A stretch of 64,000 bases of DNA from positions 17,185 through 81,184 of the forward strand of contig DATEUJ010000144.1 in the NCBI GenBank assembly GCA_035283185.1, in the 5' to 3' direction. The notes under the pieces were generated by a model. The model ran no database searches and had not been told where the DNA came from. It worked only from the letters and a program-made list of their open reading frames with translations. Source of the DNA: Anaerolineae bacterium (lineage in GTDB: Bacteria; Chloroflexota; Anaerolineae; Fen-1058). Position numbers and translations under genes: made by a program. Below are positions 8,529-63,867 of this stretch, piece by piece; the stretch's first letter is position 1; every line of letters begins with the position of its first letter.

Positions 8529-10236
<1,708 letters not shown>

Positions 10237-10681: not shown

Positions 10682-11815
10682 TTACTTGACGACCTGAGCA
10701 TAGGCGTGATAGCGGGCACGCCCGGCCTGCTCGTCGAACTGGCCCTCCCAGACGCCAAGCGCGGTGTTTAGCCAGATATAGCGCTCGTCCTGGGTACTAA
10801 ACTGAAGCGCCATCGTCAGACGCCAAAGATGCGGATAATCCTTATCGTATCCCCGCAGGCCGTACCCCTTCGCATCGAACCAGATCTGCGCCCCATCCTC
10901 TGTCTCGATGACGCCACCTGGATGGGTCGTGCATAGATGCTGACCGGGCGCAGGCTGGATACCGGCTTTCACCAGCAGGTAGGCGCAGTCAGCAGAGTAC
11001 ATCGACCAGCGGATGGTCCCTCGGATCTTCGCGCCCGTGACCGTTCCCTCGCCGCTGCCGATCAGATCGCCCTCCCGGTTCTCGTCTGGCACGACGACAT
11101 CCATGTCCGACTTGTACGCCAATTCTGCGTCGAACAGGTGCTCAAGATGCCGCTGGGCCTGCTCTGCGTAGAGGAGGACCCTGGCCCACACCTGCCGTCC
11201 CAGTTCGAAGCCATCGTCCACCGAGAGGATGACGATGCCGTCCCGACCAGCAGCCCAGCGCTCGGCTTCCGCCTGCGAGGCGAAGAAGTGGATGTGCTCG
11301 CAGAAGGTGTTCCAGATCGCCTCGACGGAGGCCATATCCTCTCGTGTCGGATCGACGATAACCATTGAGACTACTGCGCTGGTCGGGCTTACATTCTCCA
11401 CTCGCTCCGGGCTTACCGTCAGCCGCACCTTCTGTTTGGAAAGCGGCGAATACGACTCGACAGTGGCCGTCTGCTGCAGCAGGGAGGGCAGGAACAGCGT
11501 GTCCTCTGCGCACCAGGCTGACAGTGACACACCGTTGACGTACAGTCGATGCGGGTGATCGTTCAGCGACAGCCCCATGATGCCGACGATGTTGTCAGCG
11601 CCGTCCCGTTCGGTAATCTCCCGCAAGAACGGGTGTGCCTCATCTCGACTGATCCCAATGTCGGCGGTCATCCGATCCACCTGCGCTCCGGTGACCGGGC
11701 GACCGGATGCCAGACTGCGCAAGACCCGGACCAACAGGCGCGAGTGATGTGGCCCGTAATCCAGCAGACTGGCCGCCATCTTCTGCGCCATTTCGTTGAC
11801 GCGTGCGTTGTTCAT
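10682..11815 (-). CDS. merB: organomercurial lyase MerB fused to a C-terminal ~170-aa beta-rich domain (DUF3237-like)
   Basis: LSAWCAEDTLFLP (catalytic Cys and Asp) and NTFCEHIHFFAS (second catalytic Cys) match MerB. The extra C-terminal domain (...GTIRWSMYSADCAYL...GVIETEDGAQIWFDAKG...) is not part of canonical MerB. Confidence 0.8.
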   Translation of the reverse strand: MNNARVNEMAQKMAASLLDYGPHHSRLLVRVLRSLASGRPVTGAQVDRMTADIGISRDEAHPFLREITERDGADNIVGIMGLSLNDHPHRLYVNGVSLSAWCAEDTLFLPSLLQQTATVESYSPLSKQKVRLTVSPERVENVSPTSAVVSMVIVDPTREDMASVEAIWNTFCEHIHFFASQAEAERWAAGRDGIVILSVDDGFELGRQVWARVLLYAEQAQRHLEHLFDAELAYKSDMDVVVPDENREGDLIGSGEGTVTGAKIRGTIRWSMYSADCAYLLVKAGIQPAPGQHLCTTHPGGVIETEDGAQIWFDAKGYGLRGYDKDYPHLWRLTMALQFSTQDERYIWLNTALGVWEGQFDEQAGRARYHAYAQVVK

Positions 11816-16326: not shown

Positions 16327-16429
16327 GTCTTGCTCTCCTATTGCGCCGAAGTGCGCGCATGCTAACCAGGTGGCACACACAGTTCCCACCGTCCACGTCG
16401 TCGGTGGGGAAAGTCAGTCCCGTAACAAT

Positions 16430-18841: not shown

Positions 18842-19411
18842 TCAGCGCACCGGCAGAATCTGCGCGAGATATTGCTCGATGGCCTCGCCTGTGAGCGGCC
18901 CGGCGTTGACGGCACGTACGCTGCCGTCTGCGTCGACGAATACTGAAGTCGGCAGGCCGAACAACGCGTACGCCTTGCTCACGCTGCCGTCTTCGTCGAG
19001 CAGCACTGGGAAGGGCATCCGAAATTCGTCCACGAACGCCCGCGCGTCGGTAACGGCATCTTGAAAGGTCGAATTGATCGCCAGCACTTCCAGGCCGGCG
19101 CCCTGGTGCGCCTGATATGCCTGAACGATTTCTGGCATCTCGGCGCGGCACGGCCCGCACCACGACGCCCAGAAATTGATGAATACCGGGCGGCCCTTGT
19201 AATCCGACAGGCTCACTTCGCCGCCCTCCAGCGTCTTGAGCGTGAAGTCCGGCGCGGATGTGCCCGGTCGCAGACCGAACCCCGCGACCGGCGCATTGGT
19301 CGGGGCCGGGTTCGGGTCGGGCGGTGAAGTGGGTATCGAAATTGCTGCTGGCGCGCAGGCCGCCAGCAACACAGCCAGCCCGACGAAAGCCATCCACACT
19401 CGCCGTTTCAT
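18842..19411 (-). CDS. TlpA/ResA-like extracytoplasmic thiol:disulfide oxidoreductase (lipoprotein)
   Basis: Lipobox LLAACAP. FINFWASWCGPCRAEMP. Confidence 0.85.
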   Translation of the reverse strand: MKRRVWMAFVGLAVLLAACAPAAISIPTSPPDPNPAPTNAPVAGFGLRPGTSAPDFTLKTLEGGEVSLSDYKGRPVFINFWASWCGPCRAEMPEIVQAYQAHQGAGLEVLAINSTFQDAVTDARAFVDEFRMPFPVLLDEDGSVSKAYALFGLPTSVFVDADGSVRAVNAGPLTGEAIEQYLAQILPVR

Positions 19412-20226
19412 TCAGTCCTCCTCGATTCGACGGCAGCCTGCCCGACGGCGTGGCCGCTCAGGTAGCCGATGTACGCCGGCACCAGCGGCAGCACGCACGG
19501 CGACAGGAACGACAGCAGCCCGCCCAGCACCGCGATGAAGAAGGTCGGGCTTGCCGCGCCGGCCAGTCCCTCGTCGAAGGTGGTGAGTTGCCCGCTCAAC
19601 CGCGCGATGAGCGACGTGAGCGCGCCGGAAATCAGCAGCACGCCCAGCGCGATCAGAAACAGGCCGGTGATGATTTCGATCGCGTGTAGGTGGCGCGTTA
19701 TCTTCCGCACGTGGACGCCAAGCCGGTCGACGAGTAGGCCCATGATCAGGAACGGCACGCCGAGGCCAATGGCGTAGCCAATCGCCAGCAGTAGCGACGC
19801 GCCGGTCTCACCCTGGAAACCCAGTTGCAGGATCGAACCGAGCACCAGCCCGATGCACGGTGTCCAGCCGGCGGCGAAGAACGTGCCCATCGCGAACGAC
19901 GAGACGTAACCCAGTTCGGGCCGGCCCGCGAACTGGCGGCGCGTGTCGTAGTACAGGAAGGGAATCTTGAGCACGCGCATCGTCACCAGCCCGAACACGA
20001 TGATGACGGCGCCACTGATTCGGGCGATTTCGAATTTGTACTGGATGATAAGCGCGCTCAGCAGCGTGAACGCGCCGCCGAACAGCACGACGAAGATGAC
20101 CGAGAACCCCAGCACGAACGAGGTCGCATGTAGAAACGTGCCCAAGCGCTGGGCAGGCGAAACAGGCCGTGCCGTCGCCGAAAGCGTCGCGTGAGACATA
20201 ACCGCGTTCCTCATAGCCCTGGCCAT
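19408..20226 (-). CDS. ccdA: CcdA/DsbD-family thiol-disulfide transporter with an apparently circularly permuted TM order
   Basis: The order read in the ORF is TM2-like (FVLGFSVIFVVLFGG), TM3-like, TM4 (FAAGWTPCIGLVLG), TM5 (YAIGLGVPFLIMG), TM6, and then a canonical TM1 motif (LLSFLSPCVLPLVPAYIGYLSG) at the extreme C-terminus. The start codon is uncertain (20226, 20214 or 20199). Confidence 0.7.
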   Translation of the reverse strand: MARAMRNAVMSHATLSATARPVSPAQRLGTFLHATSFVLGFSVIFVVLFGGAFTLLSALIIQYKFEIARISGAVIIVFGLVTMRVLKIPFLYYDTRRQFAGRPELGYVSSFAMGTFFAAGWTPCIGLVLGSILQLGFQGETGASLLLAIGYAIGLGVPFLIMGLLVDRLGVHVRKITRHLHAIEIITGLFLIALGVLLISGALTSLIARLSGQLTTFDEGLAGAASPTFFIAVLGGLLSFLSPCVLPLVPAYIGYLSGHAVGQAAVESRRTE

Positions 20227-20264
20227 CAGGTCTCCTCTCCGTTCGCGTCGCGTGTATGCTTCCG

Positions 20265-20561
20265 TCAGCGCCCGAACAATTGCCGCAGAAAGCCGGGGCG
20301 TGACCGGTTCAGCCTCTTCAGCACCTCGCCGGGCCACGGCTCGACCATGACCGACGCGTCGGGAAAGATCACCGTCGGCACGGACAGATGCCCACGTGCC
20401 AGCGCGCGCAGCTCGCCTTGGTAGCGCGGATCGCCGTCGATCACGTCGCGCCACTCATGCGGGATGCGGTATTCGTGCAGCGTGTCCGCCAGCAGGCTGG
20501 CCTGCGGACAATAGACGTGACCGTACACGATCAGTCGCTCGCCGGCGCGAGGGTCATCCAT
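20265..20561 (-). CDS. glutaredoxin/NrdH-like small redox protein (single Cys, CPQA)
   Basis: RLIVYGHVYCPQASLL...VPTVIFPDASVMVEP resembles the Grx domain of the Grx-TrxR fusion. Confidence 0.6.
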   Translation of the reverse strand: MDDPRAGERLIVYGHVYCPQASLLADTLHEYRIPHEWRDVIDGDPRYQGELRALARGHLSVPTVIFPDASVMVEPWPGEVLKRLNRSRPGFLRQLFGR

Positions 20562-45311: not shown

Positions 45312-46385
45312 ATGCGAAGGCTCTTTCTTCTGTCAATAGCTGTTCTCACCGCGTGCGCACCGGCGACGCCTGCGCCGGCTACATCGATGCCGCGCGTCAC
45401 GGATGCGGAGACGCCTCTGCCTCCCGCATCCCTCGCGCCCAACGATTCCATTGCGCCGGCTGACCAACCCTCTGTTGCTCCCACTACTCCGCCGGTAAAG
45501 AAGAACGTCCGCCTGCCGGACACGAACGAATACTACTTCTCCCAGTTGCTCGCCTTCGATGGCATCCCGCCCGTGTACGATCCGAAGTTCATGGCGGCGA
45601 ATGAAGCGCCGCTGATCGACGACGAACTCGTCATCGGCATCACGCTTGACGGCCAGGCCAAAGCCTATCCCGTCACCGTCCTGAGCTATCGCGAGATGGT
45701 CGACGACGAGCTGGCCGGCATTCCTATCCTCGTCACCTGGTGACCGCTGTGCTACACCGGTCTCGTGCACGACCGGAGGATTGATGGAACGCCCCATACG
45801 TTCGGGAACGCGGGCGCGCTGTTCATGAACGCAATGACGTGGTACGACCACGAGACGCGATCGATCTGGTCGCAGCCGTGGGGGCGGGCGATCCAGGGGC
45901 CGCTCAAGGGCGTCGAGCTATTCCTGCTGCCGTCACAGGTCACCACCTGGGCGAACTGGAAGAACGAGTACCCCGAAACCCTGGTCATGGTCAACGACGC
46001 CGAGTTGTTTGGGCTGCGTCAGGGGTTCAGTCCGAATTTCGTCATCGGCCTCCTGCTGGATGGACGTGCGAAGGCGTACAGATACGCCGACGTGACCGCT
46101 GCCGGTGTCGTGAATGACACCCTGGGCGACGTCCCGATCGTCGTGTGGGCCGCCGATGAGAACTTCCAGGCTTACATCCGGCAGGCCGATGGGCGCACGC
46201 TGACATTCAACGCCGAGGGTGATAGACTGATCGACGTCGAGACAGGCTCGACTTGGGATGTCGGGCGAGGGCTGGCGACGGCGGGATCTCTGCGAGGGCA
46301 GGCGCTTCAACCGGTGCCTGGGTCGACCGCCTACGACTGGGCCTGGCTCGATTTCTATCCCGATTCGGAGTTCTATGCCCCATAA
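45312..46385 (+). CDS. DUF3179-family lipoprotein with in-frame TGA (putative Sec144) replacing the first Cys of the CPLC motif
   Basis: Lipobox VLTACAP. ...GIPILVTW-TGA(45741..45743)-PLCYTGLVHDRRIDG... continues in the same frame. The Cys paralog at 57488..58732 reads ...GVPLTVTFCPLCNTAIAFERTVDG... and aligns on both sides of the TGA. Confidence 0.75.
45757..45776 (+). promoter_or_regulatory. candidate SECIS hairpin CCGGTC-TCGTGCAC-GACCGG
   Basis: Perfect 6-bp stem starting 13 nt after TGA 45741..45743. Confidence 0.45.
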
Positions 46386-46572: not shown

Positions 46573-47274
46573 ATGATGGATCCCGAACTGCTCGCGCGCT
46601 ACAATTACGACGAGTTTGTCACTGTCAAATTTGAGCCGTGGCTCAACTTCGAGGCCAGCCCGCCGCTCGGCCATCCGGCGCCCGACTTTCCACTGTGGCG
46701 CCTGGATGGTAGCGAGACGCCCTTTAGCGAAGTCTGGTCGCACCACACATATACCATCGTCGAGTTCGGCAGTTTCACCTGACCATACTGTGGGATGGCG
46801 GCGCCATCCATGAACGCGATCGCCGAACGTCACAAGGAGCGCGGCGTCGGTTCGATCTTTCTCTACACACATGAGGCGCATCCAGGCGAGTATTACCCGC
46901 ACCACACGTCGATGGAACAGAAACTGCGGCACGCCCGCGACCTGCGCGACAAACTCGGCGTGACGCGCCCGATCCTGGTCGATGCACTCGACGGCGCATG
47001 CCACCGCGCTTATGGATCGATGCCGAATATGAGTTGGATTCTCACTCGATCGGGCGTGCCGATTTACAAATCGGACTGGACGGACGCGCGAAGTGTCGAG
47101 AACGCGATCGATTACTTTCTGGATGTGAACGAGCGGCGGCGTTCCGGTGAACGGCAGGCCCCATTTCGCGTCGAACGCCTCGATTTCCGAACGCAAGACC
47201 GTGAAGCCTTCTACAAGGGCCTGGAGCGCAACGGTCCGAAGGCCGTGCGGGAGTATCGAGAAGCGTTCGGCTAG
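46573..47274 (+). CDS. iodothyronine-deiodinase-like thioredoxin-fold protein with in-frame TGA (putative Sec70)
   Basis: ...YTIVEFGSFT-TGA(46780..46782)-PYCGMAAP...IFLYTHEAHPGE. The deiodinase family signature is FGSxT(U/C)Pxx ... Y(I/V)xEAHP. Confidence 0.72.
46793..46809 (+). promoter_or_regulatory. candidate SECIS hairpin GGATGGC-GGC-GCCATCC
   Basis: Perfect 7-bp stem (or 6 bp with a 5-nt G-rich loop), starting 10 nt after TGA 46780..46782. Confidence 0.5.
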
Positions 47275-47427
47275 GCCCTGTCGATTTCCTGCGAACTGTG
47301 CTATCCTTAGCGCTTATCCGAAAACGCAGACGGGCCGCTTCGCGCCATGCCCGTTCAGAGCAGCACATGGGGATGCGCGGCTACGAGGTTTTCGGATAGG
47401 CTCTTAATCCCGATCCAGGCCCCGCAG

Positions 47428-49797
47428 ATGCTCCGTTTCCGCAATCTCCGAACCAAACTCGTCCTGGCCTTCCTCGTCACCGTGCTCGTGCCGCTGATCG
47501 GCACCGGGCTTTACGGCAACTGGACGACCAGCCGCACGTTGCAGGCGCAGGCGCTCGACGCCGCCCGCGCCGACTTGCGATTGCGCGTCGAGCAGATCGG
47601 AGGCTATCTGGCCGGTGTGCGCGAAGACCTGCTCTTCCTCAGCCGCCTCGATTCGCTGGCCACACTGCTCGCCGCCGATCAACCCGCTCCCCCTCTCCTG
47701 GTCGACCTGCAGGCCGACTTCGTCGCCTTCGCCGCTACGCATCCCGGCGCCTTCCAGACTCGATACATCGACGCTAGCGGCATGGAAATCGTGCGCGTCG
47801 ATTCCACGCCGAACGGCATCGAGGTCGTCGCCGCCAACCGTCTGCAAAACAAAGCCGACCGCTACTACTTCGCAGCGGCGATGGCGTTGCCTGCAGGTGG
47901 CGTGCATGTCTCGCCCGTCGACCTGAACCGCGAATTCGGCGTGATCCAGGTTCCGCACACGCCCACCATCCGCTACGCCACGCCCGTCTTTCATCCCGAT
48001 GGCTCGCGCGCCGGTCTGGTGATCCTGAACCTGTACGCAGAACCGTTCCTGCGTTTCGCCCGTTCGGCTGCGGGCGGCGACGCCTTTCTCGTGCTGGTGG
48101 ACGAATCGGGCCACTACCTGGCACACCCCGACCGGTCGCGCGAGTGGGGTGGCCCCAACGACCTGAACACCGGTGCGGGCGCGTTCGTCGATTACCCGCA
48201 CGTCTGGCCGGAGATCGCCCGCGAGTCATCCGGCGTCTATTCGCCAGCGCCCGACAACTGGTTGAGCGCACTGATCGAGGACGTGTTGCCGATCAGCCTG
48301 GTGGGCGGGGATGATCAGACCGGCAACAGAGTGTTGGTCTACGACGCGGTGCAACTTGATCCGGAGCGTGGTCCGCGCTGGAGGTTGCTCTATGACGAGC
48401 CACGTGTCAATCTGTTCGCCTCGGTGTCCGCCTTTCGCATCACAGCGATCACCATTCTCGCCGCCGCCGCCCTCGCCGCGCTACTGATGGCCATCGGCCT
48501 GGCGCGCAGCCTGACTGCGCCCATTCTCGCGCTCACCGAAGACGTGCGGCGCTTTGGGCGAACGAAGTTGCTTCGCCGCCTGGCGGATAGCCCGCCAGGC
48601 ACGGCCCGCGTGCGCGACGAGATCGACGAACTCGAGGCGACCTTCAACGACATGTCGGCGGCGCTCGAGCAACACCTCGAACGACTGTCACTGCTCAATC
48701 GGGCCGGCCATCACATCGCCGCGCGCCTGGAGCGACCGACCGTTCTGGAAGCGGCGGCGCGCGCGGCGGAGACACTCTTTCCAGCCGAATACAGCGTGAT
48801 CTGGTTCACAACGGAACGCGGCGACACGATCACTCACACGCATGGCCATGCGCCATGGGAGGCTTACCGCGCCGATCCCGGCCTGAATGCGCTCTTCGCC
48901 GCCGCGATTGCCGACGGCGAGTGGCGCACGACGCGCCTGCCCGATGCTCAAACGCCGTCCGGATTCCTGTGCTGCGTGCCGCTGTGTGTGAGCAGGCGGC
49001 CTGGCCTGATCGAACTTTATGGTTCGAGTCCGGCGCTGGCCGATCCGGCGACCGGCAACCTGCTCGCCGCGCTCAGCGTGCAAATCTCCATCGCGCTGGA
49101 GAATGCCGAGTTGGTCGAGCGGCTGGCCGAGCGCCGTGCCGAACTGCAGGCACTGGTCGAGCAACTCATTACCGCGCAGGAAGAAGAACGGCGCGTCGTC
49201 GCCTACGATATTCACGACGGCTTGATCCAGATGCTCGTCGGCGCGCGCCTGCAGCTCAGCAACTTCCAGGCCGATCGCGCCCGCGACCCGAATCGGGCCG
49301 AGGTGGCGCTGCGGAAAGGCCTCGACGAACTGGCTGCCGCCATTGCCGAAGCCCGCCGCGTCATCGAGGGCCTGCGCCCGGCCGCGCTGGACGATCTCGG
49401 TCTCGTCACCACGCTTCGGCAATACGCTGAGGAAACCGCTTCGGCGTGCGGCTGCCGGCTGGAATTCGCCGCCATCCCGCCCAACCTGCGCGTGCCCCCG
49501 CCGGTTGAGACGACGGCGTTTCGCATCGCACAGGAAGCCATCACCAACGCGCGCAAGTACGCCGGCGCGCAGCGGCTGCAGGTCGCGCTCACGCTCGGCG
49601 ACGGCGCGCTCGTCGTCGAAGTTCGGGACGACGGCGGCGGCTTCGATCCGAGCGCCGTCGCTGGAGGGCGCGAGGTGGGCCTGACCGGCATGCGCGAGCG
49701 AGCGCGTTTGCTCGGCGGAGAATGCACCATCGAAAGCGCGCCGGGAACGGGCACTGTCGTGCGCGCCACACTGCCACTACTGGCCACTGACCACTGA
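47428..49797 (+). CDS. sensor histidine kinase (extracytoplasmic sensor, HAMP, GAF-like, HisKA_3 + HATPase; NarX/LiaS class)
   Basis: ATG 47428. N-terminal TM, a large periplasmic domain and a second TM. RVVAYDIHDGLIQ (HisKA_3 H-box). C-terminal NARKYA...GGFD...GLTGMRERA. Confidence 0.85.
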   Translation: MLRFRNLRTKLVLAFLVTVLVPLIGTGLYGNWTTSRTLQAQALDAARADLRLRVEQIGGYLAGVREDLLFLSRLDSLATLLAADQPAPPLLVDLQADFVAFAATHPGAFQTRYIDASGMEIVRVDSTPNGIEVVAANRLQNKADRYYFAAAMALPAGGVHVSPVDLNREFGVIQVPHTPTIRYATPVFHPDGSRAGLVILNLYAEPFLRFARSAAGGDAFLVLVDESGHYLAHPDRSREWGGPNDLNTGAGAFVDYPHVWPEIARESSGVYSPAPDNWLSALIEDVLPISLVGGDDQTGNRVLVYDAVQLDPERGPRWRLLYDEPRVNLFASVSAFRITAITILAAAALAALLMAIGLARSLTAPILALTEDVRRFGRTKLLRRLADSPPGTARVRDEIDELEATFNDMSAALEQHLERLSLLNRAGHHIAARLERPTVLEAAARAAETLFPAEYSVIWFTTERGDTITHTHGHAPWEAYRADPGLNALFAAAIADGEWRTTRLPDAQTPSGFLCCVPLCVSRRPGLIELYGSSPALADPATGNLLAALSVQISIALENAELVERLAERRAELQALVEQLITAQEEERRVVAYDIHDGLIQMLVGARLQLSNFQADRARDPNRAEVALRKGLDELAAAIAEARRVIEGLRPAALDDLGLVTTLRQYAEETASACGCRLEFAAIPPNLRVPPPVETTAFRIAQEAITNARKYAGAQRLQVALTLGDGALVVEVRDDGGGFDPSAVAGGREVGLTGMRERARLLGGECTIESAPGTGTVVRATLPLLATDH

Positions 49798-49826
49798 CCA
49801 CTGTTCACTGTTCACTGTTCACTGCC
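49785..49826. repeat. six in-phase tandem heptamers CACTGNN spanning the kinase stop codon up to the regulator start codon
   Basis: cactgac x2, cactgtt x3 and cactgcc x1 at 49785-49826. ATG of the response regulator is at 49827. Confidence 0.9.
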
Positions 49827-50480
49827 ATGACTGAACCGATCACCGTCCTCATCGCCGACGATCACGGCGTGGTGCGCGAAGGACTGCGCGCCATGCTGGA
49901 ACGCGAAGGGTTGCGCGTAGTGGGCGAAGCCCGCACCGGGCGTGAAGCCATTGCCCTCGCTGGCTCCCTCGCGCCCAAAGTCGTCCTCCTCGACATCCGC
50001 ATGCCCGACCTCGACGGCCTACAAGCCCTCGCCGCCATCAAAGCCGCTCGCCCTGAGACCAGCGTCATCATGCTCACCTCGCATGCCAACCCCGGCTACT
50101 TGGCCCGCGCTGTAGCGCACGGGGCCGCCGGATTCCTCTCAAAGGAAATTGACCCCGACCGCATCCCTGCCGCCGTGCGCGCCGCCGCCACCGGCGACCA
50201 TCTCCTCGACCCGGCGCTCCTGCGTGCTGCACTGGCCTCGGCCGCTGTCGAAGCGCCGCTCACCCCGGAATCCGACATCCCACCCGCCGACCTCCTCACC
50301 GAGGCCGAAACGCGCGTCCTCCGCCTGCTGGCCGAGGGGCTGGACAATGAGACGATCGCCGCCTCACTCAGCCTGAGCGTCAACACAGTCAAAACCCATG
50401 TCCGGCATATTTTCGAGAAACTGAACGTTTCCGACCGGACGCAGGCGGCGCTATGGGCGGTGCGGCATGGGATAAAGTAA
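49827..50480 (+). CDS. NarL/FixJ-family response regulator
   Basis: VLIADDHGVVREGL...VVLLDIRMPDLDG. C-terminal LTEAETRVLRLLAEGLDNETIAASLSLSVNTVKTHV. Confidence 0.9.
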   Translation: MTEPITVLIADDHGVVREGLRAMLEREGLRVVGEARTGREAIALAGSLAPKVVLLDIRMPDLDGLQALAAIKAARPETSVIMLTSHANPGYLARAVAHGAAGFLSKEIDPDRIPAAVRAAATGDHLLDPALLRAALASAAVEAPLTPESDIPPADLLTEAETRVLRLLAEGLDNETIAASLSLSVNTVKTHVRHIFEKLNVSDRTQAALWAVRHGIK

Positions 50481-50594
50481 ATCATCCTCTGGTATGACCC
50501 TTTTCACCCCTCAGCATGATGTCCGGCGCGGGTGCTTGCTGCAATATACAGTTGCAGGTTAACCACCCATATCCATTCTCCGGAGCCCCGCGCC

Positions 50595-51788
50595 ATGAGT
50601 CTGAGACACGCCCTGTTACTTCTGGTCACCCCATTGGCAGTCGGCGCTCTTGTCTTGGCGGCCTGCGCCTCATCCACTCCCGCCGGGCCGGCACCGGCCT
50701 TCACGCTGCCCGAAGCGCCGGCCATCAGAATCACGCCGCTACCTCCGCTGCCGGCGGAGCTGCCACCCGAAGCGGCCTTCCCTTCTGTGGCGGACCCGGC
50801 GTGGGAAAAGCTACCGGCTGCCCAAGTCGCGTTGGGCAAATACCTCTTCTTCGACGATGCCCTCTCCGGCGACCAGAAGTTGAACTGCGCAACCTGCCAC
50901 CAGCCGGACCGGGCCTGGATCGATGGCCTGCCTCTCTCCGTCGGCTACCCCGGCAGCCTCTACTTTCGTAACACCCCGACCCTGCTGAACGTCGGTGACA
51001 AGCCGCTCCTCTACTGGGACGGGCGTCTCGATGGGAATGACCTGCCGACCGTGATACGCGACCACATCGCTGAGGCCCACTTTATGAACGCCGACGGTCT
51101 GCTGGTCGTCGAGCGGCTGAATCAGAAGCCGCAATACGCGGAACTCTTTAGGGCAGCCTACGGCGGCGGGCCGAGTTATGGGCGCATGCTTAACGCCGTT
51201 GCCGCCTACGTTGGATCGCTGTACTCCCCGCCCAGCGCGTACGACCGCTACCGAGCCGGTGAGGCAGAAGCGCTCTCTGCCCAGGCGCAAGCAGGCCTGG
51301 CCCTCTTCGAAGGGAAAGCTCGCTGCGCCACCTGCCACAGCGGCACGCTTTTCAGCGACGGCCAATACCACAATCTGGGACTGCCTCAAAATCCGGATAT
51401 CTTCGACGAACCGCTGCGGCACATCACCTTCCGTCGATTCTTCCGGACGCTGGGCGTGCCTGACTATTCCAAACTGGAGGTAGACGTTGGGCGGTATGCT
51501 CTGACCCAGGATAATTCGGACAGCGGCTACTTCCTCACACCCGCGCTGCGGGAGGTCGGCCGGACCGCGCCATACATGCACAACGGCATTTTCGTCACGT
51601 TGGAAGAGGTCGTCGCCTTCTACAACGCCGGAGGCGGAGAGAGTTCGGAACTGTCGCCACTCAATCTCACACCGGCCGAGCAGGCGGCGCTGGTAGCCTT
51701 CCTTGAAAACCTGAGCGGTGAGCTGGTGTCGGTCGAACCGCCCGAAGCGCCTGCCTATCAGCTCACGATTCTGGGAGGCGACCAATGA
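50595..51788 (+). CDS. di-haem cytochrome c peroxidase (CCP/MauG family), lipoprotein
   Basis: Lipobox LVLAACAS. Haem motifs CATCH and CATCHSG. PYMHNG. Confidence 0.85.
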   Translation: MSLRHALLLLVTPLAVGALVLAACASSTPAGPAPAFTLPEAPAIRITPLPPLPAELPPEAAFPSVADPAWEKLPAAQVALGKYLFFDDALSGDQKLNCATCHQPDRAWIDGLPLSVGYPGSLYFRNTPTLLNVGDKPLLYWDGRLDGNDLPTVIRDHIAEAHFMNADGLLVVERLNQKPQYAELFRAAYGGGPSYGRMLNAVAAYVGSLYSPPSAYDRYRAGEAEALSAQAQAGLALFEGKARCATCHSGTLFSDGQYHNLGLPQNPDIFDEPLRHITFRRFFRTLGVPDYSKLEVDVGRYALTQDNSDSGYFLTPALREVGRTAPYMHNGIFVTLEEVVAFYNAGGGESSELSPLNLTPAEQAALVAFLENLSGELVSVEPPEAPAYQLTILGGDQ

Positions 51789-52918
51789 CCCGCCGGAATC
51801 TAATTGTGCTCGGACTGGTCGCCTTCGTCATTGTAGCGGGCATTGTCTACATGGTCGTGCAGCAGAGTCGGCTGCCAGTTGAGCTCACGGGCGGGCTGGA
51901 ACCGTTGCCTGACGTTCCCATCCCGCCTGACAACCCGATGAGCGAGGCCAGGATCGAGTTGGGTCGATACCTCTTCTTCGATCAGCGCATGTCCGGCGAC
52001 GGCAGCACCTCGTGCGCTATCTGCCACGTACCGGAGCTCGGCTGGGGGAGTGGCTCGGCGATTTCACCAGGCTATCCTGGCACATCGCACTGGCGCAACT
52101 CGCAGACTGTGATCAATAGTGCCTATCTGCCCAAGTTGTTTTGGGCCGGCGAATCTCTCAGCCTGGAGAAGCAGGCAGAATCCGCCTGGACCGGAAACTT
52201 GGCTGGCAATCTGGACCCGGCGATGGCCGAGGAACGGATGCGACAGATACCGGAGTACGTCGGCGTGTTCGAGGAAGTCTTCGGCGCTCCGCCGAATTGG
52301 GGTGACGCGCTGAAGGCGGTTGCGGCCTTTGAGCGCACGCTCGTCACGCAGAAAGTTCCTTTCGACGCCTATGCCCAAGGCGACCGGGGCGCCCTCTCGG
52401 CGGAGGCATTGCGCGGACTGGCGCTGTTCCAGGGCAAGGCGAACTGCATTGCGTGCCACAACGGCCCCTTGTTCACCGACAACAGCTTCCATAATCTCGG
52501 CGTTCCCCGCAACCCGCTATACGACTCGAACATCAATGTCCAGGTTGCGCTGCGTTACCAGCATCTCTCGCGGGGCGTGCCCGAAGAAGCGTATCAGGCC
52601 GCAGACCGCGACCTGGGACTGTATTACACGACCAAGCGCGAAGAGGACATGGGCGAGTTTCGCACGCCACCGTTGCGTTACGTGTGCTACACCGCCCCCT
52701 ACATGCACAACGGCGTGCTGAGCACCGTGGAGGAGGTCGTCGCCTTCTACAGTGCCGGCGGGGGCGATGACCCCGGCAAAGACCCGCTGATGCAGCCCCT
52801 CGATCTCACTGCGCCTGAGCAAGCCGACCTGGTCGCCTTCTTGCACAGCCTGTGCGGCGACGAAATCATCATCGAAGCCCCGGAACTGCCGCCCTATGCC
52901 GTGATCAGTAATCGGTAG
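51785..52918 (+). CDS. di-haem cytochrome c peroxidase (CCP/MauG family), second copy
   Basis: N-terminal TM anchor. CAICH and CIACHNG. PYMHNG. The start overlaps the previous stop. Confidence 0.85.
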   Translation: MTRRNLIVLGLVAFVIVAGIVYMVVQQSRLPVELTGGLEPLPDVPIPPDNPMSEARIELGRYLFFDQRMSGDGSTSCAICHVPELGWGSGSAISPGYPGTSHWRNSQTVINSAYLPKLFWAGESLSLEKQAESAWTGNLAGNLDPAMAEERMRQIPEYVGVFEEVFGAPPNWGDALKAVAAFERTLVTQKVPFDAYAQGDRGALSAEALRGLALFQGKANCIACHNGPLFTDNSFHNLGVPRNPLYDSNINVQVALRYQHLSRGVPEEAYQAADRDLGLYYTTKREEDMGEFRTPPLRYVCYTAPYMHNGVLSTVEEVVAFYSAGGGDDPGKDPLMQPLDLTAPEQADLVAFLHSLCGDEIIIEAPELPPYAVISNR

Positions 52919-53002: not shown

Positions 53003-53557
53003 ATGACCGATCAGACCTGCGATCTGAACGCAGCCCTCACCCGCCGGCACTTTCTGTTCATGAGCGGCGCGGCGCTCGTCACACTGGCGATACCCAGGTT
53101 CCTGTGGGGCGTGCCCGGGGCCGAAGCGATGCGCCTGCAATTGGCCGAGTACCCGCGCCAGAAGGTCGGGAAACTGAGCGCACTGAAGGTCGGCCGGCCG
53201 GTTCCGTTCCAGTATCCCTTCGAGCATCCCAACTGTGCCAACTTCATCTTCAAGCTGGGTGTTCCGGCGGGCGGCGGCATCGGCCCGCAGAAGGACGTGG
53301 TCGCCTTTAACAGCCTGTGCCCGCATCAGGGCGGCCCGCTGGCTGGGCGGCTCAACGCGCAGCATCAAGTCCTCGGCCCGTGCCCGCTGCATCTGAGCAC
53401 GTTCGACCTCACCCGGCACGGCATGGTCGTCAGCGGCCACGCGACCGAAGGCCTGCCCCAGATCGTGCTGGAACTAAGCGGCGACGACATCTATGCCGTC
53501 GGGGCGATGGGCCTGGTGTATGGCTTTCACAGTAATCTGGTTGATCCAAAGGCGTAA
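53003..53557 (+). CDS. aioB: arsenite oxidase small (Rieske) subunit with Tat signal
   Basis: TRRHFLFMSGAAL (twin-Arg). Rieske CPHQGG ... CPLHLS. Directly precedes the Mo-pterin subunit. Confidence 0.8.
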   Translation: MTDQTCDLNAALTRRHFLFMSGAALVTLAIPRFLWGVPGAEAMRLQLAEYPRQKVGKLSALKVGRPVPFQYPFEHPNCANFIFKLGVPAGGGIGPQKDVVAFNSLCPHQGGPLAGRLNAQHQVLGPCPLHLSTFDLTRHGMVVSGHATEGLPQIVLELSGDDIYAVGAMGLVYGFHSNLVDPKA

Positions 53558-53605
53558 TTGGTAAGTGGTAATTACCAATTACGTATTCCCAACTGGGAGT
53601 GCGCT

Positions 53606-56248
53606 ATGACCAACTACACCCCTCAAGACAAAGTTCCCCTCCCGCCTTCGGGCGCAAAGGTGTACACGACGGCGTGTGATTACTGCATCGTGGCCTGCGG
53701 TTACAAGACTTACGTTTGGCCTGAAGGCCAAGAGGGCGGCCCCAAGGCAAGTGAAAACGCGCTCGGCCTCGACTTCCCCACCGGCGTTCTCAGCGGCTGG
53801 ATCAGCCCTAACCAGCACAACCTCGTCAGCGTGGACGGCAAGCTGCATCACATCGTCGTCGTGCCGGACTTTCAAACCACAGTCGTCAACAGGGGCGGCA
53901 ACCACTCGATCCGGGGAGGAACATTGGCGCTCAAGTGCTATAACCCGAACGCGCCAACGCGCGACCGACTGCTGTACCCGCAGGCTCGCGTCAACGGCAA
54001 ACTGACTCGCGTGGACTGGGACACGGCCCTCGACGTGATGGCCGCCGTGAGCAAGCACGTGCTAAAGAACTACGGCGAGTCGGGCTGGGCCATGAAGACC
54101 TACTCCTACGAGTTCTTTGAGAACACCTACGCTATCTCCAAACTGGCCTTCGGCGCGATCGGCACTCCGGCCTTTGCCGTACACGACAAACCCAGCATGG
54201 GCTCGGACACCGGCGGGGTGGATGACGCCGGCATCATCACCTTCAGCGCCTCGTATCAGGATTGGGCCGACGCCGACGTGATCTACATCTCAGGCACCGA
54301 CCCCTTCGAGACTAAGACCATCGTCTTCACCTCGTGGATGATGGGCAAGCCGAAACTGATTTTCGCCCTGCCGCGCCGCACCACGGGTGTGGCTTACGCG
54401 GAAGCCAACGACGGCCTCTTCCTGCAAGTCATCCCTGGCACCGACACTCTCCTACACCTTGCCATCAACCGCATCATCCTGGAGAACGGCTGGGAAGACG
54501 CCGAGTTCGCGGAGGACTGGATCGCCAGCACGTGGGAAATTGACGCCGGCATGGGCCGCGGCCCGCGCAACACGCCCTGGCAGTGGCGCACCACCTGGAG
54601 CCAATTTGGGACCGACTTCGCCGGATACAAGGACTGGCTGCTGAACTACGATCTCGCCCGACTGGAAAACGCTGCCCGTGTCACCGGCGTCTCGGCAGAA
54701 AAGATCGTTCAGGCCACAGAAATGCTCACCGGCGCGGGCGGTCCGCGCCCCAAGGCCTCGTTCGCCTTCGAGAAGGGCAATTACTGGAGCAACAACTACC
54801 TCAACACGGCGTCGTTCGCGGCGATGGGCCTACTGTGCGGCGCGGGCAACCGGCCCGGTCGTGTCATCAGCCGCTTGGGCGGCCATCAGCGCGGCTGGAT
54901 GGGCGCGGCCGGCTATCCGATGGACAAGTCGCCGGAGAAATTGCCGGGCCGCCGCAAAGTGGAACTCGACCTCGACCGTTGGGTGGCAGCGGGCAACGTC
55001 CGTTTCGCCTGGGTAATCGGCACGACGTGGACGGCGGCAATGGCCGCCAGCCAGGAACTGGCCGACTCCTTCCGTAAGCTCACGGTCGAGAATCCGAACC
55101 AAATCAAGTCCGCCAACAAGCAGGCGATCGTGGACGCACTGATCCGGCGCGTCGACAGCCGCGGCATGGTGCTGGTGGACTCCGACATATATCCGGTGGA
55201 ACCCATCAACACCGAGTTCGCCGACATCGTCCTGCCCGCCGCCGCGTGGGGCGAGCACGACGCGACCCGCGCCAACGGCGAGCGCCGCCTGCGCCTCTAC
55301 AGCAAGTTCTACGATCCACCGGGTGAGGCCAAGCCCGATTGGTGGGCCATCAGCCGCTTCGCGCAGAAGATGGGCTTCAGTGGCTGGGACTGGGAAACGG
55401 ACAACGACGTGTTCGAGGAGGCCGCGCGCTTCAGCCGGGGCGGCGTGCTGGATTACTACGTGCTGGCGTGGCACGCGAAACAGATCGGCCAGAAGGGCCA
55501 CGAGGTTCTGCGCGAACTCGGCACGCAGGGCATCCAGACGCCCATTCGCTGGGTGAACGGCCAGATGGTCGGCACCGTCCGCTTGCACGACTCGACGCTC
55601 GAGCCCGGCACGCCGGAAGGTCCCACCGTCCACGCCAAATGGCTGACGCACTTCAGTTCGCACTCCGGTAAGGCGCTGTTGCTCAAAAGCCCGTGGGAGC
55701 TGTTCAGCGACTTCTACGAACGCGTCACGCCCGACCCGGCCAGCGGCGAATTCTGGCTGACGAACGGGCGCATCAACGAACTCTGGCAGTCAGGGTTTGA
55801 CGACCACCGCAAGCCGTATATGCATAACCGCTGGCCGGATACGTGGGTGGAGATTCACCCGACGGACGCGGCAAAGTACGGCATCGAGAGCGGCGACGAA
55901 GTGCGTCTGTTCAGCGACGATATTCTGATCCAGACCGGCGGCTGGATTCGGGTGAAGGGCTACAAGTTTACCGATTTGGTGAAGGAGGGATTGATCACCA
56001 CCGGCAAAGGCGATGTGCGCGCCGTCGCCATCGTCTCGGAAGACGTGCGGCCTGGCGTGCTGTTCACCAATTTCCTGCATCCGGCCAGCCCGGCCAACTC
56101 GCTCGTCCACCGCGTGCCCGACCCTTTCGCCAACGTCCACCGATTTAAACTGGGCAAGGCGCAGATCGAGAAGATCGGCGAGTCGCCGTACAAGAAATCT
56201 CTGGAGGAGATGACCTTCAAGCCGCGCACGATCACCTTCACGGGTTGA
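53606..56248 (+). CDS. aioA: arsenite oxidase large (molybdopterin, 3Fe-4S) subunit
   Basis: ATG 53606 with GGGAG RBS. TTACDYCIVACGYKTYVWPEGQEGGP aligns by eye with the AioA N-terminus (C-x2-C-x3-C, ...KWPELQEGG). About 880 aa. Confidence 0.8.
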   Translation: MTNYTPQDKVPLPPSGAKVYTTACDYCIVACGYKTYVWPEGQEGGPKASENALGLDFPTGVLSGWISPNQHNLVSVDGKLHHIVVVPDFQTTVVNRGGNHSIRGGTLALKCYNPNAPTRDRLLYPQARVNGKLTRVDWDTALDVMAAVSKHVLKNYGESGWAMKTYSYEFFENTYAISKLAFGAIGTPAFAVHDKPSMGSDTGGVDDAGIITFSASYQDWADADVIYISGTDPFETKTIVFTSWMMGKPKLIFALPRRTTGVAYAEANDGLFLQVIPGTDTLLHLAINRIILENGWEDAEFAEDWIASTWEIDAGMGRGPRNTPWQWRTTWSQFGTDFAGYKDWLLNYDLARLENAARVTGVSAEKIVQATEMLTGAGGPRPKASFAFEKGNYWSNNYLNTASFAAMGLLCGAGNRPGRVISRLGGHQRGWMGAAGYPMDKSPEKLPGRRKVELDLDRWVAAGNVRFAWVIGTTWTAAMAASQELADSFRKLTVENPNQIKSANKQAIVDALIRRVDSRGMVLVDSDIYPVEPINTEFADIVLPAAAWGEHDATRANGERRLRLYSKFYDPPGEAKPDWWAISRFAQKMGFSGWDWETDNDVFEEAARFSRGGVLDYYVLAWHAKQIGQKGHEVLRELGTQGIQTPIRWVNGQMVGTVRLHDSTLEPGTPEGPTVHAKWLTHFSSHSGKALLLKSPWELFSDFYERVTPDPASGEFWLTNGRINELWQSGFDDHRKPYMHNRWPDTWVEIHPTDAAKYGIESGDEVRLFSDDILIQTGGWIRVKGYKFTDLVKEGLITTGKGDVRAVAIVSEDVRPGVLFTNFLHPASPANSLVHRVPDPFANVHRFKLGKAQIEKIGESPYKKSLEEMTFKPRTITFTG

Positions 56249-56660: not shown

Positions 56661-56954
56661 ATGCTCCAGATATATCCTGTCGGGGCACACAACCCGCACA
56701 AGAGAAGGACTCACACTGTGCGTCCGATCTGGCAGATCCTCACCCGCACAACGCATTCTCCAAACAGTGTGCTGACCTGTGAGGAATGCTTTGCGGCGCT
56801 GGAGTATCTGGCCGAGTTGATGGATGCAGATGTTGATCCGAAAGACCTGTGGCAGACCGCCCAACGCCATCTGGCGCGCTGTCCCGACTGCCGGGAGCAT
56901 CACGCAAAGCGTATCCGCGAACTGGAGTCGCGGCTGGCCGGAGGTCGAGGCTGA
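56661..56954 (+). CDS. orphan ZAS-type (zf-HC2) anti-sigma-like protein
   Basis: RHLARCPDCREHH matches H-x3-C-x2-C. An additional CEEC lies upstream. The stop overlaps the start of the next gene (TGATG). Confidence 0.55.
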   Translation: MLQIYPVGAHNPHKRRTHTVRPIWQILTRTTHSPNSVLTCEECFAALEYLAELMDADVDPKDLWQTAQRHLARCPDCREHHAKRIRELESRLAGGRG

Positions 56955-57484
56955 TGCTTCGCGTCGGTCAACCGGCACCCGACTTGCGCCTGCCAGGTCT
57001 GGACGGATCACCGATCGCACTGTCGGATTATCGAGGCCGACCGGTCGTGCTCGTCTTTCTGCGCCATCTCGGCTGACTGCCCTGCCGCGAGCACGCGATG
57101 CAGTTGCATCGCCGACGAGACGCAGTGCTGATGCTGAATGGCGAGGTATTGCTGATCACCTTTTCCAGCGCGGAGCAGGCGCGTCGCTGGCGGGACGAGA
57201 CTGGGATCGACTTTCCGTTGTTGCTCGATGCGAATCGGGCTGTCTATCGCGCTTATGGTCTACGGTCCTCGATCTGGCGCGTGTGGCAGCCTAAGGTGCT
57301 GGCGTATTACGCGCGAGCCTTGTTGCAAGGGCAGCGCTGGCGCGGCATCCGCGACGATCCGCACCAGTTGGGCGGCGATTTCGTTGTCGATGCCGCCGGG
57401 ATGTTGCGCTTCGCGCACCGGAGCGAAGACCCGACTGATCGCCCGGCAGTTGATTCGCTCTTGTCGGTACTTCGACAGATGTGA
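56954..57484 (+). CDS. peroxiredoxin-like 2 / AhpC-TSA_2 family protein with in-frame TGA (putative Sec41)
   Basis: MLRVGQPAPDLRL...GRPVVLVFLRHLG-TGA(57074..57076)-LPCREHAMQL... in the same frame. The family motif is F(L/V)RxxGCxxCR. Confidence 0.72.
57095..57112 (+). promoter_or_regulatory. candidate SECIS hairpin GCGATG-CAGTTG-CATCGC
   Basis: The palindrome gcgatgcagttgcatcgc starts 18 nt after TGA 57074..57076. Confidence 0.45.
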
Positions 57485-57487
57485 GGT

Positions 57488-58732
57488 GTGGATATGGGAC
57501 AAGTCGCAGTCAATCTACCTCGAATCACCTGGCTGATGATCTTCGGCGTGCTACTCACGGCCTGCGCGGGAGCAGCCACTGGCCCAACGCCGGCCGAGCC
57601 CCCGCTGCCCGCCCTGGCCCCGACCCAGACTTCCCAATCGACGAAAGCCCCTACGATGACTCCCTCGCCCTCTCTGGACGAGCCGCCGCCTGCGGGCGCG
57701 CAGTTCGAGTTCACCACCGACTTCAGCAAGCACGCGGTCTCGTACCGCGAAATCCTCTCGGGCGGACCGCCCAAGGATGGCATTCCCGCAATCGACGATC
57801 CCAAGTTCATCAGCGTCGAAGAGGCCAAACAGTGGCTGTTACCGGTCGAGCCGGTCATTCTCGTTCAAGTTGGCGACGACGCCCGCGCCTATCCACTGCA
57901 GATCCTGACCTGGCACGAGATCGTCAACGACGCCGTCGACGGTGTGCCGCTCACGGTGACGTTCTGTCCGTTGTGCAACACCGCCATCGCCTTCGAGCGG
58001 ACGGTCGACGGGCGCGTGCTCGACTTCGGCACGACCGGCCGGCTGCGCTACAGCAACCTGATCATGTATGACCGCCAGACCGAGACGTGGTGGCAGCAGG
58101 CCACCGGCGAGGCGATCGCCGGTGAGCTAACGGGGACGCGGCTGAAGTTCTATCCGGCCTCCATCATCGCCTGGGCCGATTTCAATACCCACCATCCCGA
58201 TGGCAAAGTGCTCTCGCGCGATACGGGCTTTGGTCGGGATTACGGGCGCAATCCGTATACTGGCTACGACGACGTGAACAGCTCGCCGTTCCTGTATCGC
58301 GGGCCGGAGACACCCGGCGCGCTGCCGGCTGTGGCGCGCGTGCTGACAATCGCCTTGAACGGCGAGGCAGTGGCTTACCCTTACGACGTGCTGCAGGACG
58401 TGCGCATGGTCAACGACACGGTCGGCGGGACAGAGGTCGTCGTGGTGTGGAAGGGAGGCACGGCTTCCGCGCTCGACACCAGCCGCATCGCCGACGGGCG
58501 TGATGTCGGCGCGGCGAGTGCGTACTCGCGTGTTCTCGACGGCGAGACACTGACTTTCTCCCTCGACGGCGGGCGAATCGTCGATGACCAGACCGGCAGC
58601 GAGTGGAATGTGCTCGGGCAGGCGGTCGGCGGAAAACTGGCGGGCAAATCGCTGACGCCTGTCGTCGCCATCAACCACTTCTGGTTCTCGTGGGCAGCCT
58701 TCAAGCCGGAGACGCGCATCTACCAACCGTAG
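57488..58732 (+). CDS. DUF3179-family lipoprotein (Cys form, CPLC)
   Basis: Lipobox LLTACAG. DGIPAIDDPKF, YPLQILTWHEIVND, VTFCPLCNTAI and MYDRQTETWWQQ. Confidence 0.8.
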   Translation: MDMGQVAVNLPRITWLMIFGVLLTACAGAATGPTPAEPPLPALAPTQTSQSTKAPTMTPSPSLDEPPPAGAQFEFTTDFSKHAVSYREILSGGPPKDGIPAIDDPKFISVEEAKQWLLPVEPVILVQVGDDARAYPLQILTWHEIVNDAVDGVPLTVTFCPLCNTAIAFERTVDGRVLDFGTTGRLRYSNLIMYDRQTETWWQQATGEAIAGELTGTRLKFYPASIIAWADFNTHHPDGKVLSRDTGFGRDYGRNPYTGYDDVNSSPFLYRGPETPGALPAVARVLTIALNGEAVAYPYDVLQDVRMVNDTVGGTEVVVVWKGGTASALDTSRIADGRDVGAASAYSRVLDGETLTFSLDGGRIVDDQTGSEWNVLGQAVGGKLAGKSLTPVVAINHFWFSWAAFKPETRIYQP

Positions 58733-63434: not shown

Positions 63435-63508
63435 TGGGCCTGCAGGGAGTCGAACCCTCTCTGACTGCCTTATAAGAGCAGCGCCCTCAACCGGAGAGCA
63501 CCAGGCCC
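63435..63508 (-). tRNA. tRNA with anticodon UAU (Ile-like), non-canonical G8 and a G-G mismatch in the T stem
   Basis: Manual fold: acceptor GGGCCTG/CAGGCCC, anticodon loop CTTATAA, T loop TTCGACT. No encoded CCA. Confidence 0.6.
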
Positions 63509-63514
63509 ACACTG

Positions 63515-63588
63515 TGCCGCCCGTCGGACTCGAACCGACCCTTTCCCGGCGCTTCAGACCGGAGCCCTACCGGCTAGGCCAGAGCGGC
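63515..63588 (-). tRNA. tRNA-Phe (GAA)
   Basis: Acceptor GCCGCTC/GGGCGGC, anticodon loop CTGAAGC, T arm GTCGG-TTCGAGT-CCGAC. The variable region seems to be 6 nt. Confidence 0.7.
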
Positions 63589-63613
63589 AGCGACTGTGGA
63601 TCGTTTCGGCCAG

Positions 63614-63687
63614 TACCAGCCCTCGGACTCGAACCGAGATGAACCGCGGTCTGAGCGCGGTGCGTCTGCCATTTGCGCCAGGCTGGC
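63614..63687 (-). tRNA. 74-nt class-I cloverleaf with anticodon CAG (a Leu codon reader without a long variable arm)
   Basis: Acceptor GCCAGCC/GGCTGGT (G1-U72). Anticodon arm CCGCG-CTCAGAC-CGCGG. Variable region TTCAT only. T arm CTCGG-TTCGAGT-CCGAG. Confidence 0.55.
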
Positions 63688-63719
63688 ACGGTAGCGGGTA
63701 CGGGAACGGATCAATGCAG

Positions 63720-63792
63720 AACCCTCGGTCGGATTTGAACCGACTGTCTCCGCGTTCGAAGCGCGGCATGCGTCCCATCGCACCGCGAGGGC
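63720..63792 (-). tRNA. tRNA-Arg-like (UCG)
   Basis: Acceptor GCCCTCG/CGAGGGT (G1-U72). Anticodon arm CCGCG-CTTCGAA-CGCGG. T arm GTCGG-TTCAAAT-CCGAC. C8 instead of U8. Confidence 0.6.
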
Positions 63793-63794
63793 AG

Positions 63795-63867
63795 TCGGGA
63801 AGGCGGGGCTCGAACCCGCGACCTCTGCAGTCCAAGTGCAGTACGCTGCCAACTGCGCCACTTCCCG
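63795..63867 (-). tRNA. tRNA-Pro (UGG)
   Basis: Fully canonical fold. C1-G72 acceptor CGGGAAG/CTTCCCG. Anticodon loop CTTGGAC. T arm GCGGG-TTCGAGC-CCCGC. Only 2 nt from the next tRNA. Confidence 0.85.

Follow-up and report, generated by a model that had tools for sequence, protein, structure and literature searches.

The DNA analysed here, called the window throughout, is a stretch of 64,000 nucleotides (nt) from contig DATEUJ010000144.1 of an Anaerolineae bacterium (Chloroflexota). Positions 45312 to 46385 of its forward strand hold a gene that public gene calls split into two open reading frames (ORFs) of 143 and 206 amino acids (aa), and that we interpret as one complete coding sequence for a selenocysteine (Sec)-containing DUF3179 lipoprotein of 357 residues, with Sec (U) at residue 144. 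From the ATG at 45312 to the TAA at 46383-46385 there is a single frame, whose only internal stop is the TGA at 45741-45743 (ILVTW-[TGA]-PLCYTGLVHDRR, or in its wider context GIPILVTW-[UGA]-PLCYTGLVHDRRIDG). Seven sense codons (PLCYTGL) lie between this TGA and the GTG at 45765 that gene callers take as a start. An earlier reading of the letters alone (the sequence-only reading) had described two ORFs in one frame separated by just this interval, and the sequence and its translation agree with it. Read as Sec, the UGA codon (45741-45743, +) provides U144, the first position of a UxxC motif that aligns to Cys in homologs; the second position is Cys147, encoded by TGC at 45750-45752 (+).

The joined protein, with U written as C, matched Pfam PF11376 (DUF3179) with 222.4 bits (E=1.1e-65), which exceeds the gathering cut-off of 27 bits, and the part after the TGA also matched this profile on its own (140.4 bits, E=1.1e-40). 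That the downstream ORF might prove unrelated to the family, an outcome that the sequence-only reading had allowed for, was not borne out. A second DUF3179 gene, which has Cys in place of Sec (FCPLC) and a lipobox, is located at 57488-58732 (+; PF11376 E=3.9e-110). BLASTP aligned the joined protein with this paralog from end to end (E=2e-51, 31% identity) and paired the TGA with the first Cys of FCPLC; the whole-length alignment had been proposed before, and all the matching blocks then quoted are present. No NCBIfam model matched either DUF3179 protein. Both copies had also been credited with lipoprotein signals, and each indeed carries a lipobox, as judged by pattern only. In the window protein the predicted signal peptide covers 45312-45356 (+) and its lipobox L-T-A-C ends at Cys15 (codon 45354-45356); MRRLFLLSIAVLTAC and the homologs fit the pattern [LVI][ASTVI][GAS]C, and the N-terminus of the paralog reads VLLTACAG. 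By the same pattern, lipobox-like signals were found in 61 of 80 upstream halves of relatives. U144 and C147 are the only Cys/Sec residues of the mature window protein.

Relatives were collected by scanning one genome per species, which yielded 77 loci, nearly all of them from metagenome-assembled genomes (MAGs) of Chloroflexota and spanning Anaerolineae, Dehalococcoidia, Caldilineaceae and Promineifilaceae. The homologous codon is TGA in 73 of these 77 species-level loci, at 40-70% protein identity and in the conserved context W-U-P-[IL]-C-[YF]-T-G. Since the TGA occupies the identical codon in so many related genomes, the arrangement is far beyond chance, and the placement of Sec at the first Cys of the CPLC motif, as first suggested from the letters, holds across the clade. 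The expected alternation of TGA and Cys at this column was also observed: Cys replaces TGA in L062, in L075 and in extra paralogs of L044 and L045, and the same column is the Cys of CPLC or CSIC in the window paralog and in the five full-length matches (P0002-P0005 and P0008; FCPLC or WCSIC) that were retrieved from a search space of 5.8 billion proteins. In that same space, more than 100 distinct clusters of 206-208 residues start at MHDRRIDG, just past the TGA. Cys147 is invariant in 75 of 75 Sec-form sequences and in the family alignment. L003 and L052 have two Sec-form copies each. In L044 (7962-10460) and L045 (7879-10361), three DUF3179 genes stand in tandem, two in the Cys form and one in the Sec form, which offers a natural comparison of Cys and Sec paralogs within one genome.

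The TGA could instead be a true stop, and the locus a split gene, a pseudogene, or a 143-residue lipoprotein fragment followed by a 206-residue protein initiated at GTG 45765. We consider this very improbable. Every public gene call does divide the locus in this manner, no Sec machinery was seen in the window, and TGA serves as an ordinary stop elsewhere in it; however, a true stop would have had to persist at this codon across 73 of 77 species, with flanks diverging down to 40% identity, and at a position where homologs have Cys. Mean identity is 0.59 upstream of the TGA (domain part) and 0.60 downstream, with a correlation of r=0.84 across loci. This equal constraint on both halves indicates that the upstream part is not a dead N-terminal fragment. 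A split at this point would moreover bisect the first beta domain and leave the C-terminal part devoid of a signal peptide, and synonymous constraint keeps a hairpin 3' of the TGA (see later in the text). A genome-wide reassignment of UGA (e.g. to Trp or Gly), or a sequencing or assembly error, would account for a bare in-frame TGA and for nothing more, and we give it hardly any credence. Of the 28 Pfam-supported genes in the window, 16 end in TGA, more than in any other stop, which indicates that any recoding is site-specific, and the in-frame TGAs of the window sit at Cys positions of redox motifs. The identical split gene was found in at least four independent Joint Genome Institute (JGI) metagenome assemblies, so a sequencing error is rejected, and the same TGA recurs in the 73 genomes. 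Across Chloroflexota, one clade of DUF3179 thus has Sec as its prevailing form, in 73 of 77 species-level genomes.

Shortly downstream of the UGA we identified a candidate selenocysteine insertion sequence (SECIS), on the basis of folding, codon bias, a recoding test and compensatory changes. This SECIS-like hairpin (45757-45776, +) starts 13 nt 3' of the UGA and consists of a stem of 6 base pairs (bp), CCGGUC/GACCGG, closed by an 8-nt loop, UCGUGCAC, which contains GU. A hairpin starting at this same distance can be folded in every Sec-form sequence. However, the peptide TGLVHDRR is also kept in Cys-form genes, and amino-acid conservation alone could therefore mimic a conserved structure. Codon choice in the stem is strongly skewed: the Gly codon is GGT in 59 and GGC in 16 of 75 sequences, as compared with a GGT background of 16% in the same genes; the Arg codon is CGG in 62 of 75, versus a background of 27%; and in the other codons of the stem region, Thr is ACC in 61 of 75 and Leu is CTC in 49 of 58. 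At the Gly nine codons further on, GGA, GGC, GGG and GGT are used 22, 22, 22 and 6 times, respectively. Real 30-nt segments were also compared with synonymous recodings of the same peptides. The mean fold energy was -10.65 kcal/mol for the real segments versus -6.0 for the recodings, and the empirical p was at most 0.05 for 64% of the sequences (p=0.03 for the window sequence). Four of six Cys-form controls folded no better than their own recodings; five of these controls encode TGLVHDRR and the sixth, L075, reads TALVHRRE.

A variant form of the hairpin, (C)GGGCAUG-GUN-CAUGxCC(G), with 8 bp and a 3-nt loop, is present in 17 sequences. Its inner helix is 94% paired and includes two compensatory double changes (A-U to G-C and G-C to A-U), and pairing at this level with two compensatory pairs was reached by none of 500 shuffles. 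On this comparative evidence, synonymous sites 3' of the TGA are constrained so as to keep a predicted hairpin. Taken jointly with the identity of the gene, it is highly probable that this putative SECIS, to which SelB would bind, directs Sec decoding at UGA 45741-45743. The element resembles SECIS elements of the fdhF type in being a small hairpin inside the ORF and close behind the UGA; its apical loop has a GU some 22-23 nt from that codon, a spacing within the range of bacterial SECIS search models. It differs from the fdhF type in that its stem has only 6 bp with an 8-nt loop and no Rfam match.

Several results weigh against this assignment. Rfam returned no SECIS, whether for the whole window at gathering thresholds or for 45600-45950 at E<=10, and RNAalifold found no consensus structure in the 75 sequences. 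When a fixed 13-pair structure was imposed, 79% of the cells were paired and covariation was not clearly above that of controls; this weakness in a fixed register reflects the two hairpin forms, which pair in different registers. The main hairpin form is nearly invariant, so that its support comes mostly from codon bias among related sequences. In addition, the 60- and 73-nt segments of the window folded no better than their dinucleotide shuffles, and two of the six Cys-form controls did beat their recodings (L045, p=0.013; L075, p=0.057).

The Sec machinery itself was not encountered, which also counts against Sec decoding. ARAGORN detected no tRNA-Sec in the window or in the 77 loci, Pfam scans of about 40 window ORFs gave no SelA, SelB or SelD, and selA, selB, selD and tRNA-Sec were all unseen in 1.17 Mb of related loci. 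Five tRNA genes are clustered at the window end (63435-63867, -), for Ile-TAT, Phe, Leu-CAG, Arg-TCG and Pro-TGG, none of them tRNA-Sec. We infer the decoding capacity of the organism; Chloroflexi are documented as Sec users (PMC1794560).

The window was also scanned for further Sec genes, i.e. in-frame TGAs flanked on both sides by coding-like third-position GC. Three more genes were found with a TGA on a Cys of a redox motif, each followed by a downstream hairpin. These additional candidates, two of them in catalogued Sec families, lend indirect support to predicted Sec decoding, and four Sec-candidate genes within 64 kb point to a selenoprotein-rich organism. The first is a deiodinase-like/redoxin gene (46573-47274, +; T4_deiodinase 31.3 bits, Redoxin 35.3 bits) that adjoins the Sec-DUF3179 gene downstream. 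It has its TGA at 46780-46782 in EFGSFT-U-PYCG and a candidate hairpin at 46793-46809, and gene callers split it into ORFs of 69 and 154 aa. Both genes, with this TGA, are likewise paired in 10 further loci (L001, L002, L003, L008, L010, L011, L012, L020, L022 and L026). Deiodinase-like proteins are a Sec family with UxxC in the prokaryotic selenoproteome catalogue. The second is an AhpC/TSA peroxiredoxin-like gene (56954-57484, +; AhpC-TSA 79.5 bits), with its TGA at 57074-57076 in LRHLG-U-LPC and a 7-bp hairpin at 57095-57112. The gene begins within TGATG (56952-56956), where it overlaps the stop of a small Cys-rich ORF located upstream, and 3 nt separate its own stop from the Cys-form DUF3179 paralog. 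The TGA is kept in L001 (U..C) and in L055, where there are two TGAs (U..U). The same catalogue lists the peroxiredoxin-like Sec family as UxxS, whereas the motif of the window gene is UxxC. The third candidate, a flavoprotein disulfide reductase, is described at the end of the text.

The sequence-only reading had presented the Sec form of DUF3179 as a new selenoprotein family. This claim fails, as the family is already catalogued: 'DUF3179 domain-containing protein, pfam11376, UxxC/T' appears in the tables of predicted prokaryotic selenoproteins of PMC9312934 (2022) and PMC13188914 (2026), with MBW1804167.1 and MDJ0986319.1 as example accessions, and novelty of the family therefore has little significance here. 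Both catalogues credit Zhang and Gladyshev 2007 (PMC1976440). The text and tables of that paper do not use the name DUF3179 and have older names such as OS_HP1-3, no specific one of which could be mapped to it, so that the attribution to 2007 rests on the reviews. The window gene is thus a mis-annotated member of a selenoprotein family listed since 2007. It shares with the catalogued DUF3179 selenoproteins the Pfam family, Sec at the first residue of UxxC, the existence of Cys homologs and the lack of an assigned function. The catalogue entries differ in giving one example accession, without organism breadth, structure or context; the dominance of Sec in a Chloroflexota clade, the truncated gene calls and the structural and context data appear to go beyond them. 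In every public annotation that we found, the genes of this clade are split into two truncated ORFs, and the National Center for Biotechnology Information (NCBI) records of about 206 aa named "DUF3179 domain-containing protein" correspond to the truncated half. Counts of the Chloroflexota selenoproteome are consequently likely to be underestimates.

For the structural context of the UxxC motif, the closest full-length Cys homolog, P0004, was modelled with AlphaFold (AF2) from a 49-sequence alignment. The model (mean predicted local distance difference test, pLDDT, 87; predicted template modelling score, pTM, 0.82) is all-beta and has two similar halves. Its CPLC (residues 132-135) is placed in a turn between strands 125-132 and 137-142, with no helix after it, which contradicts the earlier expectation of a thioredoxin-like CxxC at a helix N-terminus. 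A thioredoxin-fold oxidoreductase was accordingly discarded, the DUF3179 part also having no thioredoxin-family Pfam match. Across the aligned family, no Cys is conserved apart from that of the lipobox and the CxxC pair, and this excludes a structural Cys4 zinc site, for which four conserved Cys/His ligands are not present. Two His (in VHDRR and YDH) are conserved in the Sec clade and its close Cys relatives, not in the paralog clade. A PDB sequence search with DUF3179 returned nothing significant. The best PDB neighbours of the model in Foldseek were Rieske ferredoxins and NirD-type small subunits (target TM-score 0.5-0.6, E>=0.012, probability up to 1.0, over a domain of about 100 residues). 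This is a weak fold similarity, in which the C-P-x-[C/H] turn of DUF3179 recalls Rieske box II, the residue equivalence being putative; DUF3179 differs in having neither the CxH/CxxH ligand set nor a profile match. A Rieske [2Fe-2S] domain was rejected, as the CxH...CxxH motifs are absent, Pfam gave no Rieske match at E<=10 and the hhalign probability was 0.09.

These data allow a joint statement on the gene and its product. We are highly confident that a single gene would yield a lipid-anchored extracytoplasmic DUF3179 protein, that its UGA at 45741-45743 would be read as Sec via the hairpin at 45757-45776, and that U144-P-L-C147 would form part of the turn linking two strands in an all-beta domain, as predicted by sequence and model. 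With somewhat less assurance, we regard the Sec decoding of this DUF3179 gene as genuine and its UxxC centre as important for function. What this centre does is a matter on which the evidence is more divided.

A redox role is still the best, if unproven, hypothesis for the UxxC. In three proteins of Anaerolineae MAGs (P0199, P0213 and P0214; 589-603 aa), a lipoprotein signal and DUF3179 are naturally fused to a C-terminal TlpA-like thioredoxin/AhpC-TSA domain with the thioredoxin motif WAGLCPICR, and it is these fusions, from the Cys paralog clade, that make a redox role plausible. In its favour are also the neighbouring genes of the window, in which the Sec peroxiredoxin-like gene precedes the Cys paralog and the Sec deiodinase-like gene follows the Sec-DUF3179 gene. 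The conservation of the CxxC as sole Cys pair, and the catalogue motif UxxC/T with its dispensable second Cys, speak for the same role. The earlier proposal of an extracytoplasmic thiol oxidoreductase is thereby partly retained: redox activity is plausible and the signal pattern points to an extracytoplasmic location, whereas the thioredoxin-like geometry has to be abandoned. As in the clients of TlpA/ResA/CcmG-type thioredoxins, the DUF3179 protein would be membrane-anchored and outward-facing, and the fusions suggest a reductant-client pair; unlike these thioredoxins, DUF3179 does not have the thioredoxin fold, and the fusions are from the clade of the Cys paralog.

Among the other products of the window is a TlpA-like thioredoxin (FWASWCGPCRAE), whose gene adjoins that of a membrane protein (both within 18842-20454, -). 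The membrane protein has a weak and partial DsbD_TM match (29 bits), from which we infer a putative CcdA/DsbD-type carrier. The TlpA-like and DsbD_TM-like pair could form an extracytoplasmic reducing pathway serving the DUF3179 proteins. In the mechanism that we propose, Sec144 would attack first, as part of a redox centre reducing an oxidised substrate outside the cytoplasmic membrane, and would then form a selenenylsulfide with Cys147; this bond would be re-reduced by a TlpA-type thioredoxin, itself fed by a CcdA/DsbD-type membrane electron carrier. That Sec144 acts as the nucleophile in such an outward-facing centre, recycled in this way, is a tentative proposal, to which we lean without granting it even odds, and the specific relay is less certain than the identity of the gene. 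More doubtful still, though possible, is the generalisation that DUF3179 is an uncharacterised non-thioredoxin-fold extracytoplasmic (seleno)thiol reductase with a beta-turn UxxC on a Rieske-like domain, recycled by TlpA and with Sec as the normal residue in the Chloroflexota clade. Such an outward-facing, non-thioredoxin-fold UxxC centre with thioredoxin-fusion relatives nevertheless provides a first working hypothesis for the function of DUF3179.

A number of observations speak against this redox relay. The thioredoxin fusions belong to the Cys paralog clade, at about 31% identity, and not to the Sec clade. The adjacent redoxin genes have no signal peptides and their products are thus probably cytoplasmic. 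The structure was modelled on a Cys homolog 52% identical to the window protein and not on the window protein itself, and in this model the CxxC is outside the helix-capping position of thioredoxins, while metal-binding knuckles, too, typically have a CPxC turn between strands.

This last point leads to another explanation, in which a Rieske-like beta domain would bear, in its UxxC, a site for a metal or metalloid (e.g. Cu(I), Hg(II), As(III) or Zn) rather than a catalytic redox pair, and any thioredoxin partner would merely keep the ligands reduced for metal loading. The strand-turn-strand knuckle holding the CPLC of P0004 would suit such a site, as would the Rieske ferredoxins and NirD-like domains found as best structural neighbours, but all Foldseek E values were 0.012 or worse and the hhalign comparison with a Rieske protein gave the low probability stated above. 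The two His of VHDRR and YDH, conserved in the Sec clade and its close Cys relatives, also favour a metal site; the paralog clade does not share them, however, and throughout the family no more than two Cys are conserved. The cysteines with which ScoI and CoxB bind copper are reduced by TlpA-type thioredoxins, so that a thioredoxin connection would fit a metal site as well. The prokaryotic selenoproteome catalogue includes other UxxC selenoproteins with metal-binding roles, and yet its motif for DUF3179, UxxC/T, implies that the second Cys can be lost, i.e. that loss of the second ligand is tolerated. Finally, genes related to metals and metalloids abound in the window (merB, one for a MerA-like reductase, and a Rieske and molybdenum pair of arsenite-oxidase-like type beside the paralog operon), whereas no conserved metal-transport neighbour was seen across 75 loci. 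On balance we judge the metal site, which is the main alternative, less likely, and the redox centre is kept as the preferred function.

In the comparison of these 75 loci, no conserved operon partner pointing to a substrate was found. The sole recurring non-housekeeping neighbour is the deiodinase-like gene, in 11 loci; the other recurring neighbours are housekeeping genes as identified by eye from their sequences (leuB/C/D-like and others), and their recurrence reflects synteny and not function. The UbiA gene upstream of the Sec-DUF3179 gene was considered as a partner and set aside, as it is not conserved across the 75 loci. Between the two DUF3179 genes of the window, there are genes for a Rieske subunit and, next to it, for a large subunit that combines Rieske_3 (3Fe-4S) with molybdopterin domains (53003-56248, +, the Rieske subunit first); arsenite oxidase AioB/AioA has this domain set. 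Upstream of this pair there are two di-haem cytochrome c peroxidase/MauG genes (50532-52918) and a histidine kinase/LuxR pair (47347-50480).

The third additional Sec candidate is located at 8836-10236 on the reverse strand (Pyr_redox_2 202.8 bits, Pyr_redox_dim 124.3 bits). It encodes a class-I pyridine-nucleotide disulfide oxidoreductase of the Lpd/GR/MerA-like type, with a TGA (10114-10116) at the first Cys of the redox-active CxxxxC (GGT-U-VNEGC). A term search of the 2026 selenoproteome catalogue did not retrieve the family, and the Sec form of this flavoprotein disulfide reductase may therefore have escaped cataloguing so far. An intact N-terminal GGxCxxxxC is absent from 119 of the top 120 clusters of reductase homologs. 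In the 14 homolog fragments that we inspected, the sequence starts at VNEGC or at a point beyond it; their annotations are dihydrolipoamide dehydrogenase or FAD-containing oxidoreductase, from Chloroflexi and Marinimicrobia. The sole full-length homolog among the top 120 clusters, P0271, has the Cys form. The reductase gene adjoins merB (10682-11815) and lies near a Cys paralog with GGTCVNVGC (14644-16389, -).

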